A DNA stretch of 24,331 nt from an uncultured Methanosarcinales archaeon (GTDB lineage Archaea; Nanobdellota; Nanobdellia; Woesearchaeales; ARS49), in NCBI GenBank assembly GCA_964413955.1, contig CAYPUD010000002.1, forward strand, positions 1 through 24,331. The letters are read 5' to 3'. The notes under the pieces were generated by a model. The model was not told the origin of the DNA, did not search any database, and saw nothing but the letters and a program-made list of their open reading frames with translations. Each line of letters opens with the position of its first letter. Positions within the stretch are counted from its first letter, which is position 1. The translations under genes and the position numbers were made by a program. This document shows, in pieces, positions 1,717-24,331 of this stretch.

Positions 1717-2388
1717 TTAATACACCATGATGTTGTGGTCCGCTCTTTTCAGATAGCCTCTGGTGTTGTTTTTTTCTGACACGAAATGAGCGAATTCTCT
1801 GCCTGATGCTTTTACTGTCTGGATGATCTGTTCTATTGTCTTTCTGTGGTCTGCGAATTGTTTTATTCCCACGCTTTCTGGTGCATAAAGGTATAATTTA
1901 GCTTTTGTTGTTAAGATGTCTGTCAAGTATGCCAAAACCCCTTTTTCACCTTCATAGTCTGCCAGATGGGTCGGGTCTATAAAGAATAGTGAATCCTCAT
2001 CAGCTAAAGATATGTATTCATCAATATAGTCCTGGTAAGTTTCAAAAACGTCAACTTTATTCCCGTATGGTTGAACATTCGCTCGCAACTCTTCACGCAG
2101 CGCACTATTTTTCTCGTTCAGATACGCATGAAAATCTCTTCCAGAATTGCTTATCATTTCTAATGCAAGAATTGCTGCTCCTTTAAACTCATTGTCAGTT
2201 CCTCTGTTGTATATTCCTGCTCCTGCAAACAGGTCAAAATATTTGAAGACGTCGTCAGGATCAGTTGTTTCTTGTTTGTTCTGCTTCAAATTCACTGTGT
2301 TGAGAATTTCTTTTAAGAAATCGCTGAAGTGTTTCTGTTTTATTCTGTCTGTGAGGTTCTGTGGAGAATATCCTGTCTTGTTTTTCAT
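1717..2388 (-). CDS. Class I SAM-dependent methyltransferase-like protein (TcmP/RlmJ-like)
   Basis: YFDLFAGAGIY (motif I), LNEKN (motif II acidic residue) and FFIDPT (DPxx-like motif IV). Confidence 0.7.
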   Translation of the reverse strand: MKNKTGYSPQNLTDRIKQKHFSDFLKEILNTVNLKQNKQETTDPDDVFKYFDLFAGAGIYNRGTDNEFKGAAILALEMISNSGRDFHAYLNEKNSALREELRANVQPYGNKVDVFETYQDYIDEYISLADEDSLFFIDPTHLADYEGEKGVLAYLTDILTTKAKLYLYAPESVGIKQFADHRKTIEQIIQTVKASGREFAHFVSEKNNTRGYLKRADHNIMVY

Positions 2389-2413: not shown

Positions 2414-3124
2414 TTATTGGTTTACTTTCATTCCTGTCAGTTCTCCTGTTCCATCATCTTCCATTATGACTTCCTTATAGGATATGCCTTCTTGCAGCAT
2501 TTCTTTTATCATCAGTCCATCTGAAGGTATTATTTTTGCTGGCAGTTCATCCAGATTGAACCATGCGAGCTGGCCTTCTTCTCCTGATGTAAATTCTTCG
2601 CTTTTTGATTCTAACTCGCAGAGGAATATGACGAATGCGTGTTTTATCTCATCGCCTTCTTTTACTCTTTCATGCAGCACCCCTCTCACACCTTTGAACT
2701 CGCAGTCCAATCCTGTCTCTTCCTTGGCTTCTCTTATTGCGCAGTCTTTTATTGATTCTTTCATTTTTAGTTTGCCGCCTATCATTCCCCAATATCCTTG
2801 GTAAGGCCTTTTTACTCTCCTTAACAAGCATATCTTGTTCTTGTGCTTCACTGCTGCAACTATCACTGTCAAAGGGCCTGTTTCCCTGCCAGTGAGGTGG
2901 GCGAAGAAAGGGAGCATCTGTTCTGCTTTTTTTGTCAGCTTGTAATATTCGTCATCTTTTTCAAGCAAGCCGTCTTTTATCATCATATCAAGATGATAGC
3001 TTAATGTGTTTGATTTGAGCTCAAGGCTTTTCTCTATCTCATTGAATTTGAGCATCCTTTTCTTAATGAACAGCTTGAAAATGTCTTCTCTTTCTTTTTT
3101 TGCGAGTGTTGTGTTTGATTTCAT
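2414..3124 (-). CDS. N-terminal winged-HTH plus C-terminal Nudix domain; putative transcription regulator
   Basis: wHTH pattern FNEIEKSLELKSNTLSYHLDMMIKDGLLEK...YKLT and an intact Nudix box GKLKMKESIKDCAIREAKEETGL. Confidence 0.85.
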   Translation of the reverse strand: MKSNTTLAKKEREDIFKLFIKKRMLKFNEIEKSLELKSNTLSYHLDMMIKDGLLEKDDEYYKLTKKAEQMLPFFAHLTGRETGPLTVIVAAVKHKNKICLLRRVKRPYQGYWGMIGGKLKMKESIKDCAIREAKEETGLDCEFKGVRGVLHERVKEGDEIKHAFVIFLCELESKSEEFTSGEEGQLAWFNLDELPAKIIPSDGLMIKEMLQEGISYKEVIMEDDGTGELTGMKVNQ

Positions 3125-3149
3125 CTTATTTTATTGAAATTGTCTTTTT

Positions 3150-3164
3150 CTTATTAATTTTTCC
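3150..3164 (-). promoter_or_regulatory. BRE-TATA promoter for the wHTH-Nudix gene
   Basis: Minus strand ggaaaaa-ttaataag about 33 nt before ATG 3124. Confidence 0.55.
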
Positions 3165-3207
3165 TCAAGAAAGTTTGACTGTTGTGTTCTTTCCTTCTGT
3201 CTTTCTG

Positions 3208-3226
3208 GTCTTGGCCAACTCAAGAT
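3208..3226. promoter_or_regulatory. Isolated palindrome TCTTG-N7-CAAGA matching the unit of the dispersed arrays
   Basis: gtcttg-gccaact-caagat. A second CTCAAGA half-site lies 55 nt away at 3164-3170. Confidence 0.45.
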
Positions 3227-3227
3227 G

Positions 3228-3740
3228 TTACGAGAACTTGTAGCTAAAGTACTTGTCTATGTCTGGCACTATATCAAATTCTTTTATTTCTTCTGGGCTG
3301 ATCCACACGTATCTTTCGTGTTCCCAATCCAGCCTGATCTCAGGTATTTTTTCCAGTTCAGCTAAAAATGGAAACACTATCCAGGTCTTATTGGTCTGGC
3401 CATCATGGTATTCTATTGCTTCTCCTTTCTTTATTGAAGTTACTTTATCTGCTGTTATGCCTGTCTCTTCCTCCAGTTCTTTCAGAGCTATTTCTTTTGC
3501 TGTGATTGGCCTATCAATATAGCCCCCTATGTTTGCCCACTTGCCTTTGTATGAGCTGACTTTCTGGCTTCTTTTAAGGAGTAGGTATTTCTCGCAGCAC
3601 TTGACCAATAAAGTGACTACTGGCGCTATTTCAGAATCTGAATAGTTCACTCTTCCGTCTGGAAATTTAGGGAGTCTTTCCTGGAATTCTTTCACCAGTG
3701 TTATTTCGTCTTTCATCCTGTTGTTATTTGTTTCATTCAT
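3228..3740 (-). CDS. Nudix hydrolase
   Basis: LLLKRS...YKGKWANIGG followed by the Nudix box variant GYIDRPITAKEIALKELEEETGI, and C-terminal LDWEH...WI. Confidence 0.9.
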   Translation of the reverse strand: MNETNNNRMKDEITLVKEFQERLPKFPDGRVNYSDSEIAPVVTLLVKCCEKYLLLKRSQKVSSYKGKWANIGGYIDRPITAKEIALKELEEETGITADKVTSIKKGEAIEYHDGQTNKTWIVFPFLAELEKIPEIRLDWEHERYVWISPEEIKEFDIVPDIDKYFSYKFS

Positions 3741-3807
3741 TTTTGTTTGTTTGGCTTAAGATCAGATTTGCCTTAGATCTGGTTTGTCTGTTATAGAATC
3801 AATCATG

Positions 3808-14709: not shown

Positions 14710-14820
14710 CGGACCGGAAGGGATTCGAACCCTCGACCACTCGGTTTCCTTTTCAATTGATCTCTCAATTGATTGCTGGAATTAAAAGCCGAGTGCTCTA
14801 CCAGGCTGAGCTACCGGTCC
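14710..14820 (-). tRNA. tRNA-Lys(UUU) with a 37-nt intron at position 37/38; CCA not encoded
   Basis: Acceptor GGACCGG/CCGGTCC, D arm GCTC-AGCCTGGTA-GAGC, anticodon stem CTCGG/CCGAG with CT-TTT-A, and T arm GAGGG-TTCGAAT-CCCTT. The exons sum to 74 nt. Confidence 0.95.
14746..14782 (-). other. tRNA intron with bulge-helix-bulge ends
   Basis: CTTT (positions 32-35) pairs with intron AAGG, with 3-nt bulges TAA and AAA. Internal hairpin CAATTGA-GAGA-TCAATTG. Confidence 0.9.
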
Positions 14821-18105: not shown

Positions 18106-18127
18106 GTTTTGCTTTAATCTGTAATTT

Positions 18128-18142
18128 CTTTTTAAGCTTTTC
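18128..18142 (-). promoter_or_regulatory. BRE-TATA promoter for the 63-aa gene
   Basis: Minus strand gaaaagc-ttaaaaag, with the first TATA T at 18135. Confidence 0.6.
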
Positions 18143-18150
18143 TTTAATTT

Positions 18151-18490
18151 GGCTAAGTCAAGTTAAGTATGTCTTTGCCGCCAAGCATAGTATTTAGTTA
18201 GATTTTTTCAACACAAATCTTATTTTTAGTCCAAAAAGATCTTCTGCCCATTTTTTTTGCTTAAGAAAAGACTCTATACCCTAAAACCTGCTAATAACTC
18301 TGCGATTTTTCTTTCAGAATAAAACAGCAACAATATCTGTTTGCGTCCAAACAGGACGCCTAATGTTCAGCTCAAGAGTCTCCCCGCTTCTGCGTTACTA
18401 AGGACATCCTCGCTTATTGCTCATGTTCAAGAGTATTCTCCCTTGCTCAAAACATTTTACAGTACACTTCTTGTTCAGCCTAGGAGTATT
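18151..18490. other. Copy 2 (complete) of the dispersed non-coding element: conserved end motif, hairpin and three ~54-nt-periodic palindromic units (ncRNA, MITE or operator array)
   Basis: ggctaagtca...tgccgccaa (18151-18184), tatttttagt (18221), tgcgat (18301), hairpin gcgtcc-aaaca-ggacgc (18343-18359), and units at 18360-18378, 18414-18433 and 18468-18486. Collinear with 24121-24305. Confidence 0.75.
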
Positions 18491-18631
18491 TTTCTAGTTC
18501 TGTTTTTGTCATGGTTTGTTGATCTGTTACTCTGAGCGATTGTTGGTTTTTTCTTGTTGAGTTTTTGCTTGTTTAGGCTTTTGCCTTAATATTTCATGAC
18601 ATTTATATACTTGTTTTGTTTTTTTTGTTGT

Positions 18632-20134: not shown

Positions 20135-20150
20135 CAAAAACATTTATATA
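20135..20150 (+). promoter_or_regulatory. BRE-TATA promoter for the secreted paralog pair
   Basis: caaaaaca-tttatata. Confidence 0.65.
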
Positions 20151-20188
20151 CTCTTCTTGTTTTAATTGCTGTGAAAAGAGGTGTAGTT

Positions 20189-21704: not shown

Positions 21705-22667
21705 TTATTGTTTGCTTCCTTTTCTTTTGATCGCTTTCTTTACTGCTTTTGTTATGCTTTTCTCGTCCAGCCCGTAAAGCTTATACAATTCTTCCGCTTT
21801 CCCTGACTGACCAAATCTGTCTTTTACGCCTATGAATTCTATTGGCACAGGGTATTCCTGAGAGAGCATTTCTGCAACTGCGCTTCCTAATCCTCCTGCA
21901 ATCTGGTGTTCTTCTGCTGTCACTATAGCTTTTGTTCTTTTTGCGAATTGAATTATTTCTCTGTCAAGAGGCTTTATTGTGTGGCAGTCTATCACGCTCA
22001 CTTTAATACCTTCTTTTTCCAGTGTTTTTGCTGCGTTTAATGCTTTTTCTACCATGTATCCTGTTGCGATTATTGTTGCATCCTTTCCTCTCTTTAGGAC
22101 ATTGATTTTTCCTATCTCAAACTTATCTGTCATTCTTGTTATTATGTTTGCTTTTGCTCTTCCTAATCTCAGATAGCATGGCCCTTTTATTATCTTTAGC
22201 ATTGCTTTTGTTGCTTTCTTTGCTTCATTGTAGTCGCAGGGTGATATGACTGTCATGTTTGGCATTGTCCTCATAATTGCTATATCCTCAAGTGCTTGGT
22301 GTGTCGCGCCGTCCTCTCCTGTGTTTATTCCACAGTGTGTTGCAGCAATTTTTACATCAGCTTGATTGTAGCAGACGTTTATCCTTATCTGGTCGAGTGT
22401 TCTTCCTGGTGTGAATACCCCAAAGCTTGTTGTCACTGCGGTCTTGCCTGCTAGTGCCAGTCCTGCTGCTATGCCTATCATATTTTGTTCTGCCACGCCG
22501 CATTCAATGAATTGTTCAGGAAATTTTTCTGAGAATTCTTTTACTCTTGTGCTTTCTCTTAGGTCTGCTGTCAGGACTATCAAATCTTTTTTTTTCTTTC
22601 CTTCTTCTAGCAGAGCTTCTCCAAATCCTTGCCTTGTTGATTTTTTTTCTTTCATTTTTTCTTTCAT
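21705..22667 (-). CDS. Transketolase, C-terminal (pyrimidine-binding) subunit
   Basis: GVAEQNMIGIAAGLA, GEDGATHQALED and AEEHQIAGGLGSAVAE. Confidence 0.96.
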   Translation of the reverse strand: MKEKMKEKKSTRQGFGEALLEEGKKKKDLIVLTADLRESTRVKEFSEKFPEQFIECGVAEQNMIGIAAGLALAGKTAVTTSFGVFTPGRTLDQIRINVCYNQADVKIAATHCGINTGEDGATHQALEDIAIMRTMPNMTVISPCDYNEAKKATKAMLKIIKGPCYLRLGRAKANIITRMTDKFEIGKINVLKRGKDATIIATGYMVEKALNAAKTLEKEGIKVSVIDCHTIKPLDREIIQFAKRTKAIVTAEEHQIAGGLGSAVAEMLSQEYPVPIEFIGVKDRFGQSGKAEELYKLYGLDEKSITKAVKKAIKRKGSKQ

Positions 22668-22780
22668 TTTGAGACTGTTTTGGCTTTTTTAGCCATCGCA
22701 TTGATTTTTGTTGTTAGGAATAGACCAGCATTATCATCTTCTGCTTGTTGCGTAAATTGTTGCATGAATGATTGTGTGAT

Positions 22781-22794
22781 GAAAAGGTTTAAAT
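22781..22794 (+). promoter_or_regulatory. BRE-TATA promoter for the LMW-PTP gene
   Basis: gaaaagg-tttaaat about 32 nt before ATG 22820. Confidence 0.55.
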
Positions 22795-22819
22795 CTTGTT
22801 CAGGATTTATTTTGCCTGT

Positions 22820-23143
22820 ATGAAATTGTTGTTTATCTGCAATCAGAATAAGAATCGGAGCAGAACTGCTGAGATGATCTTCAAAGGCAGGTTCGAGACA
22901 AGGTCTGCTGGCCTTTACTGCGCTGAGCCTGTTTCTGAAGAGCAGGTCTCTTGGGCTGATATTGTTTTTGTTATGGAGGATGCTCAACGCAGTGAGCTTG
23001 CCAGAAGGTTCCCTAAGCAGTATCTGCTTAAGAGGATCATTTCTCTGAATATTCCTGATGTTTTCCATTTCAATCAGCCTGAGCTTATTGATATCCTCAA
23101 AGCAAAAGTTGGGGATGTTTTGGCAGGCCTGCATATTTCCTAG
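22820..23143 (+). CDS. Low-molecular-weight protein tyrosine phosphatase-like protein
   Basis: LLFICNQNKNRS (Cx5R-S P-loop), RSAG, WADIVFVME and LNIPD. Confidence 0.9.
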   Translation: MKLLFICNQNKNRSRTAEMIFKGRFETRSAGLYCAEPVSEEQVSWADIVFVMEDAQRSELARRFPKQYLLKRIISLNIPDVFHFNQPELIDILKAKVGDVLAGLHIS

Positions 23144-23243
23144 CGCTTTTCGATTCTGCTTTTTTGTTCTCATGTTTTTTTGTCGCATTTTTTTTGTCTT
23201 GTCTTTTTTACTCTTCTTCATTACGCATCTCTTTTTGATGATC

Positions 23244-24071
23244 TTATCTTTCGCCAAGTTCTTTCAGGGCAAGTTTGGCTTGCGCTTCATCTGGCGCTTT
23301 GCCATGCCATTCGCTTTTTCCTTCCATGAAGCTGACTCCTTTTCCAGGAATTGTGTTGGCTATTATCGCTGTTGGCTTTCCTTTTGTTTTTCTTGCCTGT
23401 ACGCATGCTTTTATGATCTCCTGTATCTTATTCCCGTCTATTTCTATCACGTTCCATTTGAATGCAATGTATTTTTTCTTGAGAGACTCTAATGGCATTA
23501 TTGCTCTTGTTTTTCCGCTTAATTGGATGTGGTTCCTGTCTATTATGTTTATCAGATTGTCAAGCTTGTTGTTTCCTGCAAACATTATCGCTTCCCAGGT
23601 GTTTCCTTCATCATGGTCTCCGTCGCTCGTTATGCAGAACACTTTTGCCTTGTTCTTGTCCATCTTCAAAGCAAGAGCCTCTCCTATTGCTATGCTTAAG
23701 TTTAATCCTAATGGTCCTGAGCTTGATTCTAGTGCTGGAAGATCAACATAACTAGGATGGCCTTGTAGTCTGCTTCCTAATTTTCGCAGTTCTAAAAGTT
23801 CTTTTTTTGGGAAGTATCCTGCATAAGCCATTGCCGCATATCTTGCTGGACACACATGGCCATTGCTTAGGATGAGCCTATCCCTGTTTTTCCATTTTGG
23901 ATTTTTGGGATTGTGTTTCATCACATTGAAGTATAGTGCTGTCATCACGTCAGCGATTCCTAAAGATCCTGCAGGATGCCCTGACCTTGCTTCTGTTATC
24001 ATCCTGATTATCTCTATCCTTAGCTTGTTTGCAATCACTTCTAATTTCTTTATGCTGTTTATTTTCACCAT
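23244..24071 (-). CDS. Transketolase, N-terminal (TPP-binding) subunit
   Basis: SGHPAGSLG, DRLILSNGH, LQGHP, SDGDHDEG...N and TIPGKGVSFME...WHG. Confidence 0.96.
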   Translation of the reverse strand: MVKINSIKKLEVIANKLRIEIIRMITEARSGHPAGSLGIADVMTALYFNVMKHNPKNPKWKNRDRLILSNGHVCPARYAAMAYAGYFPKKELLELRKLGSRLQGHPSYVDLPALESSSGPLGLNLSIAIGEALALKMDKNKAKVFCITSDGDHDEGNTWEAIMFAGNNKLDNLINIIDRNHIQLSGKTRAIMPLESLKKKYIAFKWNVIEIDGNKIQEIIKACVQARKTKGKPTAIIANTIPGKGVSFMEGKSEWHGKAPDEAQAKLALKELGER

Positions 24072-24098
24072 CTTTTTTGTTGTTATTGTTCTCTGTTA

Positions 24099-24113
24099 TT
24101 ATAAATGTTTTTC
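24099..24113 (-). promoter_or_regulatory. BRE-TATA promoter for the transketolase genes
   Basis: Minus strand gaaaaaca-tttataa, with the first TATA T at 24105. Confidence 0.65.
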
Positions 24114-24120
24114 TCAGTAA

Positions 24121-24331
24121 GGCTAAGTCAACTTTAGTGTGCCTATGCCGCCAAACGTGGTCCTCGAATGATTTCTTTCTGCATAGGTTTATTTTTAGTT
24201 TAAAACAACATTCTGTCTTGCGATCTTTATCTTCCGAAAAGAACTTCAACAAATAATAAGTACGCGTCCAAGCAGGACGCCTATTGTTTAACTCAAGAGT
24301 TTTCTTCCGTTACTTTTCACAGCATCAAGAA
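24121..24331. other. Copy 3 of the dispersed non-coding element (cut by the window end)
   Basis: ggctaagtca...tgccgccaa (24121-24154), tatttttagt (24190), tgcgat (24219), hairpin gcgtcc-aagca-ggacgc (24264-24280) and unit ctattg-tttaact-caagag (24281-24299). Confidence 0.75.

Follow-up and report, generated by a model that had tools for sequence, protein, structure and literature searches.

A conserved 22-bp box at the promoter of a winged-helix–Nudix gene family from DPANN archaea, a probable autoregulatory operator

Among the closest described systems are several from bacteria. NrtR proteins, which are Nudix-related regulators of bacterial NAD metabolism, comprise an N-terminal Nudix domain followed by a C-terminal winged-helix (wHTH) domain, and their operators, which precede NAD metabolism genes, are palindromic over 21 bp and have the core GT-N7-AC (PMC2330246). 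MsNrtR has been termed an auto-repressor (PMC6800001), and the site of a further regulator, NadR, is TGTTTA-N6-TAAACA (as quoted in PMC2330246). Regulation by proteins that carry a fused enzyme is not a new principle, as NrtR, NadR and BirA precede the family described here. Archaeal regulators such as TrmB/TrmBL1, MDR1, Phr and LrpA have operators that lie either just before the BRE or in the interval from the TATA box to the TSS, a placement that determines which of TFB/TBP and RNA polymerase is blocked. The genomes of DPANN archaea are small, with few recognisable regulators and, to our knowledge, almost no experimentally defined operators. In the literature searched, no description of an N-terminal wHTH–Nudix regulator in archaea was found.

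The DNA analysed, hereafter the window, is a 24,331-nt stretch from a DPANN archaeon with a G+C content of ~39%, to be placed in the Woesearchaeota by the labels attached to near-identical proteins, and originates from hydrothermal and marine sediment metagenomes. An earlier note on this DNA had described a wHTH-Nudix gene and proposed that its product controls its own promoter, together with a set of repeat arrays, through a palindrome in the upstream spacer. This spacer (3125–3227, 103 nt) is bounded by two minus-strand genes, which encode a stand-alone Nudix hydrolase of 170 aa (3228–3740; Pfam NUDIX, 56.5 bits) and the wHTH-Nudix protein of 236 aa (2414–3124). Along the minus strand, the stop codon of the former is followed by 2 nt, the flagged palindrome, 38 nt, TCTTGAG, GAAAAA, TTAATAAG, 25 nt and the ATG of the latter. 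The promoter of the wHTH-Nudix gene (3150–3163, minus strand) thus consists of a BRE-like GAAAAA (3163–3158) and the TATA box TTAATAAG (3157–3150), placed 26 nt upstream of the ATG at 3124. Because the TATA box occupies −33 to −26 relative to the ATG, a position conserved in an upstream alignment of 16 orthologues, the usual archaeal TATA-to-TSS distance implies a leaderless or near-leaderless mRNA.

A TcmP-like gene with methyltransferase-like motifs (DLFAGAG, FFIDPTH) starts 25 nt past the wHTH-Nudix stop codon (1717–2388, minus strand, 223 aa). Its match to NCBIfam model TIGR04474 is sub-threshold (43.9 bits against a cut-off of 53), and a homologue is found directly downstream, at −25 to +13 nt, in 10 other loci of the group formed by the window and its close relatives (group 1). 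Synteny makes this gene a probable operon partner, presumably co-transcribed, and therefore a probable co-regulated gene. The arrangement of a stand-alone Nudix gene upstream of the wHTH-Nudix gene, both in the same orientation, recurs in L089/L096. The operator matrix described below has no match in 3741–3807, in front of the 170-aa Nudix gene. The neighbourhood comprises Nudix, TcmP-like and glycosyltransferase-like genes and none for NAD metabolism. A direct repeat of ~16 nt (CAGATCTAAGGCAAAT / CTGATCTTAAGCCAAAC; 3749–3786, minus strand) lies just upstream of the 170-aa Nudix gene, with no clear TATA box beside it.

The wHTH-Nudix protein was analysed with Pfam, a family alignment, an AF2 model, Foldseek and a PDB profile search, which bore out the Nudix domain named in the earlier note and predict a winged helix before it. 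The AF2 model (pLDDT 88.6) comprises an N-terminal winged helix at residues ~10–63, two linker helices and a Nudix fold, the latter delimited by Pfam at residues 86–204 and scoring 72.1 bits against PF00293 (cut-off 21.1), which places it in the Nudix superfamily. The Nudix box is intact (G117-X5-E123-X7-R131-E132-A-K-E135-E136-T-G-L), and since G117, E123, R131, E132, E135 and E136 are invariant or at least 90% conserved among 44 family members, catalysis is probably retained. The best Foldseek matches are MTH1/MutT, with TM values of 0.7–0.79 on the target; PDB profile matches fall only on the Nudix part, with MutT and MTH1/NUDT1 at the top, and the ADPRase entries 3o8s and 4kyx and the NrtR-type entry 2fml rank lower in the PDB sequence list. 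Over the N-terminal part, the PDB sequence search returned no match; HTH_45, DUF7347, HTH_5, HTH_20 and NCBIfam ArsR/SmtB models match weakly, all below their cut-offs, and no curated NCBIfam model reaches its cut-off on the protein. The predicted topology of this domain is that of a wHTH, α1-β1-α2-α3-β2-β3, at a pLDDT of ~90.

More than 100 full-length relatives were found, mostly labelled Woesearchaeota, Nanoarchaeota or "archaeon". A search of 1.84 billion cluster representatives yielded 120 proteins at E ≤ 1e-30, and by our own count roughly 70 of 150 among the matches listed contain both domains, which makes this a family of modest size. The proteins are best read as an undescribed DPANN family that combines an N-terminal wHTH with a putatively catalytically intact MutT/MTH1-like Nudix domain. 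A Methanosarcinales protein with the same HTH-then-Nudix order (L012:2989–3600) shows 27% identity and a degenerate Nudix box, and no CTCAA-N6-TTGAG box is found upstream of its gene; it may represent a non-catalytic relative that is either independent or older.

Orthologous loci were collected by exact-protein look-up and by a metagenome profile scan with an N-terminal alignment, and the DNA upstream of the start codons was taken. A profile built from the full-length alignment fell on the generic Nudix box and returned nearly all unrelated Nudix genes, with one usable orthologue (L008). Upstream of ~80 wHTH-Nudix orthologues, one conserved element was observed, TTCCTCAA-N6(5)-TTGA(C/G)TAA, located 1–3 nt from the TATA box and with a recurring core of CTC(A/G)A-N6(or N5)-T(T/C)GA(G/C). 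In the window, this element corresponds to TTCCTCAAGAAAGTTTGACTGT at 3161–3182, with the core CTCAA-N6-TTGAC at 3164–3179. It takes in the second CTCAAGA (3164–3170) that the earlier note had regarded as a half-site of the flagged palindrome: this heptamer lies, as claimed, exactly 55 nt from the palindrome and adjoins the BRE/TATA of the wHTH-Nudix gene, and it does contain one arm of the conserved box, but its GA falls within the non-conserved spacer of that box.

A matrix was built from 38 unique orthologue boxes, with the window copy excluded. This copy scored 25.5 bits, compared with 5.0 bits for the runner-up in the 24-kb window. At their own promoters, 69 of the 83 entries, which correspond to 64 unique loci, reached at least 15 bits, and the strict box pattern was present in 56 of 68 orthologue upstream regions. 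Entries below 15 bits mostly lacked upstream sequence, had a mis-set start or carried the one-letter variant CTCAG...TTGAC, which scores ~4 bits in L008 and L123 and is weaker in L140; the matrix scan detected no box in L124, L131, L135–L137 and L141. Protein identity among box-bearing orthologues ranges from 86% down to 36%, across many different gene neighbourhoods. In the upstream-region alignments, box and TATA are invariant and the flanks unalignable, and the box columns are likewise invariant among 16 close upstream regions. The 18-mer CCTCAAGAAAGTTTGACT of the window recurs identically in L128, there in the opposite layout, with a protein that is 49% identical to that of the window over the matched N-terminal region.

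The element is thus conserved at the promoter of the regulator itself, in 64 unique loci, and rare elsewhere. No other strong site was found in the ~470 kb of orthologue flanks beyond the orthologues' own promoters, with L105 as one unclear case; other strong flank matches proved to be promoters of further orthologues whose starts had not yet been set. Within the window, the matrix found no second site. As the box is unique in the window and in these flanks, it is specific to the wHTH-Nudix gene. The centres of its two half-sites are separated by 11 bp, roughly one helical turn, or by 10 bp in the N5-spacer group, which would allow a dimer to bind along one face of the DNA. From this footprinting we infer binding, and the wHTH-Nudix gene very probably regulates itself via the box at 3161–3182. 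The autoregulation proposed earlier is thereby supported, through CTCAA-N6-TTGAG/C (3164–3179) rather than through the palindrome at 3209–3225, which is not conserved.

Variation of the box follows that of the protein. The third helix of the wHTH, the recognition helix, carries a conserved RSNxLSYHL, in which x, Thr40 in the window protein, is Met in 15 of 15 CTCGA-type loci and never Met in CTCAA-type loci, and Lys in 18 of 20 N5-spacer loci. This correlation fits co-evolution of protein and site, with the proviso that the groups are clades and the correlation is confounded by shared ancestry.

Two promoter layouts were distinguished, in both of which the TATA box lies 1–3 nt from the TTCC end of the operator box. 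Among distant orthologues (36–60% identity; group 2), the order is ATATTTAAATA, box and, within 0–6 nt, the ATG, whereas in group 1, i.e. the window and ~20 close relatives, the module is inverted with respect to the gene and reads box, 3 nt, TATA, ~25 nt and ATG. The box accordingly occupies ~−55 to −40 from the ATG in ~20 group-1 loci and ~−20 to −1 in group-2 loci. With the gene on the operator side, as in the distant orthologues, the box fills the interval from the TATA to the leaderless start; with the gene on the TATA side, as in group 1, the GGAA at the flank of the operator overlaps the BRE. A divergent gene for a Nudix hydrolase of ~168 aa shares a common near-palindromic TATA in 37 of the 72 loci with enough upstream sequence, and the group-1 layout exactly matches the one seen by this divergent gene in group-2 loci. 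The TATA–operator pair thus behaves like one fixed module that has been flipped, with respect to the regulator gene, between lineages. The divergent Nudix proteins of L110–L174 (e.g. L157:2712–3224 and L120:418–906) carry a long insertion inside the Nudix box (PGGKLE...~25 aa...REVxEExGL), and their common TATA ATATTTAAATA sits in a ~50-nt spacer.

We read the box at 3161–3182 as the operator of the wHTH-Nudix protein, at which a bound dimer would repress its own gene until relieved by a nucleotide. We infer binder, sign and ligand, and assign this reading a probability of about 0.7. A dimer would bind the palindrome TTCCTCAA-N6-TTGA(C/G)TAA through its N-terminal winged helices and would exclude TFB or RNA polymerase in both layouts by masking the BRE in group 1 and the TATA-to-start interval in group 2, which makes auto-repression the most likely action. 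Repression would extend to the downstream TcmP-like gene in the window and to the divergent Nudix gene elsewhere, and would probably be relieved by a nucleotide substrate bound (or turned over) by the MutT/MTH1-like domain; that the ligand is a nucleotide is a guess from the fold class. Two observations argue against this reading: the window box precedes the BRE/TATA, as the sites of archaeal activators can, and a minority of orthologues have a variant box only or none detected.

An alternative is a dual mode of action, in which the protein would activate its own gene in the window layout, by recruitment of TFB/TBP, and repress it in the other. Position-dependent dual regulation has been described for TrmB-family regulators, and it would suit both the shift of the box from ~−20 to −1 in group 2 to ~−55 to −40 in group 1 and its location upstream of the BRE/TATA relative to the divergent Nudix gene in group 2. 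Occlusion is more plausible than recruitment, however, given that the GGAA flank, only 3 nt from the TATA, overlaps with the purine-rich BRE position; positive autoregulation without an off-switch is also less common, and we consider this alternative, though the main one, unlikely.

The flagged palindrome, TCTTG-gccaact-CAAGA (TCTTGgccaactCAAGA, i.e. TCTTGGCCAACTCAAGA), does exist at 3209–3225 as an exact 5+7+5 palindrome, beginning 3 nt past the stop codon (3228–3230) of the Nudix gene upstream. No further exact TCTTG-N7-CAAGA occurs in the window, against an expectation of 0.07 and with at least one copy in 7 of 100 shuffles, for a motif chosen after the fact; by our own estimate, some palindrome with 5-bp arms within a 103-nt spacer is unremarkable. 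A search upstream of the orthologues, as proposed in the earlier note, revealed that the motif is absent from the closest ones, L088, L089/L096 and L090/L095 (72–86% identity), all of which bear the box. Two of these spacers measure only 54–58 nt. The operator matrix gives no position overlapping 3200–3237 above 0.2 bits. A role as hairpin or terminator was rejected, as the RNA fold is less stable than shuffles (z = +1.28) and no T-run follows. The palindrome at 3209–3225 is specific to this species and in all likelihood fortuitous.

Its right arm also starts a near-operator, CTCAAGATGTTACGAG (3219–3234; CTCAA-N6-aCGAG), which overlaps the stop codon of the upstream gene. This stretch might serve as a weak auxiliary operator that acts by cooperativity or looping across the five helical turns to the main operator, with the palindrome as a by-product. 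It has one core mismatch when read on either strand and lies exactly 55 nt from the main operator, a proximity for which we estimate p ~0.03, post hoc. Across the 64 loci, four of nine secondary near-sites lie at 53–59 nt from the main operator, but such near-sites occur at background density and this statistic, too, is post hoc. The matrix score is ~0.2 bits, and window sites with at most one operator mismatch number 7 against 6.5 ± 3.2 expected, i.e. chance frequency. The near-operator is not conserved in close relatives: the closest orthologues lack it, and in two of them the spacer is too small to accommodate it. It is a weak lead, a possible weak auxiliary site or a chance match, and we consider the auxiliary role improbable.

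It may also be asked whether the box is bound by another factor, or is a gene-specific core-promoter element, with the wHTH-Nudix protein binding elsewhere or not at all, given that wHTH domains can also make protein–protein or RNA contacts. In ~470 kb, however, the box occurs only at the wHTH-Nudix promoter; it has remained next to the gene despite rearrangements and an inversion of its orientation, it varies together with the recognition helix, and its dyad geometry suits a wHTH dimer. We regard this explanation as improbable.

The arrays constitute a separate subject. The family (r0k, r18k, r24k, r30k) comprises at least four paralogous intergenic elements that share one orientation and fall within 31 kb, at 1–205, 18126–18490 and 24096–24331 of the window, the last continuing to ~24511 in contig coordinates (L091:7087–7526), and at L091:5810–6453, past the right end of the window. 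Each has a conserved leader of ~200 nt (GGCTAAGTCAAnTTnAGT...GCCGCCAA, TTTATTTTT, CTGCGAT and the hairpin GCGTCCAArCAGGACGC), followed by 2–5 degenerate tandem units of 54–55 nt, whose conserved part is directional, with the 33-nt consensus GCACGCCTCTTGTTCAGCCCAAGAGTTTTCTGC. The number of units at one locus varies between assemblies (2, 3 or 5), and the contig ends inside one array copy. One copy folds with an RNA z of −4.67, and Rfam gave nothing significant in the array regions at E ≤ 1; array-matching sequencing data are DNA metagenomes only, and a search for RNA runs covering the wHTH-Nudix locus likewise returned none. Several identities were considered and rejected. Coding repeats of 18 codons are open in one frame in r30k, while other copies, by our own reading, contain in-frame TAA; CRISPR is at odds with "spacers" that are homologous within and between loci and with degenerate repeats; conserved operators of the ArsR-type gene are at odds with syntenic relatives that have short array-less spacers (66–118 nt); and the array unit has a single match in viral contigs, in apparent coding sequence and consistent with chance.

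The earlier note had equated the spacer palindrome with that of the arrays. Every array copy has at least one arm mismatch, however: the unit "arms" are complementary at only 2–4 of 5 positions in 16 of 16 units. An array-unit matrix gives 30–48 bits to true units and −11.8 bits to 3202–3234, and neither an array leader nor tandem context is present in 3125–3227, which sets this spacer outside the array family. At the syntenic position, the arrays are missing in three relatives with an adjacent ArsR-type orthologue, which have spacers of 66–118 nt beside that gene, and one of these array-less relatives (the genome of L088/L176) carries the wHTH-Nudix gene. Since the arrays are absent from these syntenic spacers and give no match to the operator matrix, we read them as a lineage-specific repeat family, unrelated to the wHTH-Nudix operator, and not as the regulon that had been suggested. 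The model in which the protein recognises TCTTG-N7-CAAGA, with 3209–3225 and the half-site 3164–3170 as operators and the arrays as regulon, could invoke the low expectation of 0.07 exact palindromes per window, the 55-nt spacing equal to the array period in r0k and a mild enrichment of matches with at most one mismatch (5 against 1.78), but it is largely refuted and very improbable, as this enrichment stems from the array copies themselves, the palindrome is missing from all close orthologues, the conserved box letters are CTCAA/TTGAG and not TCTTG/CAAGA, the operator matrix gives no match in the arrays, the array-unit matrix rejects 3202–3234, none of the 16 array units is a perfect palindrome, and the arrays are missing from the syntenic spacer of three relatives, one with the wHTH-Nudix gene.

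Genes next to the arrays include transketolase, nitroreductase, glyoxalase and ArsR-SIMPL. The transketolase is split (21705–24071, minus strand) into an N-terminal gene (23244–24071) and a C-terminal gene (21705–22667), between which lies an unannotated ORF of 185–197 aa (22664–23257). A 33-nt promoter/leader block (ACATTTATATACT...) is found at 18599–18631 and 20140–20172, before the ArsR-type and RskA_C-like genes, and the probable start of the ArsR-type gene is 18632, which yields 197 aa and agrees with the gene call on the contig, and not 18596. A tRNA gene with a 38-nt intron (14710–14820, minus strand; Rfam tRNA, 59 bits), missed by ARAGORN in bacterial mode, is the only element of the window above the Rfam gathering threshold.

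Comparison of sequences has thus yielded a regulator family, a 22-bp site, two promoter layouts and a candidate specificity residue. The orientation flip of the TATA–operator module represents a natural experiment on operator position versus regulatory outcome in archaea, and the fusion of a MutT/MTH1-like domain to a DNA-binding domain points to feedback control over nucleotide "house-cleaning" enzymes. Going beyond auto-repression, we tentatively entertain, as a possibility, that these proteins are bifunctional enzyme-repressors that would sense their own MutT/MTH1-like substrate, for example damaged or non-canonical nucleoside triphosphates, and de-repress themselves and a partner Nudix gene via the two-way TATA–operator module. 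If true, archaea would thereby have their first described regulator of nucleotide-pool sanitation, and DPANN archaea one of their very few defined regulator–operator pairs.

As in NrtR, a Nudix fold and a winged helix are joined in one polypeptide, a palindromic operator of ~21–22 bp lies near the promoter, repression is proposed to be relieved by a nucleotide-type ligand, and autoregulation, frequent in NrtR, is likely. The analogy drawn in the earlier note therefore holds for the logic of a Nudix domain fused to a wHTH and fails for family membership. The wHTH is N-terminal here (residues ~10–63) and C-terminal in NrtR; the Nudix domain is closest to MutT/MTH1 here and is of the ADP-ribose pyrophosphatase type in NrtR; the Nudix signature is fully conserved here and often degenerate in NrtR. 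The operator, TTCCTCAA-N6-TTGAsTAA, differs as well, there are no NAD-gene neighbours, and the promoter setting is that of an archaeal TATA/BRE. The protein looks like a fusion independent of NrtR. With NadR of enterobacteria and BirA it has in common an N-terminal HTH attached to a nucleotide-handling enzyme, a hyphenated palindrome and, presumably, the principle that the enzyme domain supplies the metabolic signal; their enzyme folds, however, are unrelated (NMN adenylyltransferase/ribosylnicotinamide kinase and biotin ligase), and their targets are bacterial promoters of other pathways. The predicted wHTH topology would be compatible with ArsR/SmtB, with weak HTH_5, HTH_20 and NCBIfam ArsR/SmtB matches below cut-offs, but the sensor here would be the Nudix domain. 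TrmB/TrmBL1, MDR1, Phr and LrpA, finally, belong to other protein families, and what sets the present family apart from them is a fixed TATA–operator module that is found in either orientation relative to the gene.
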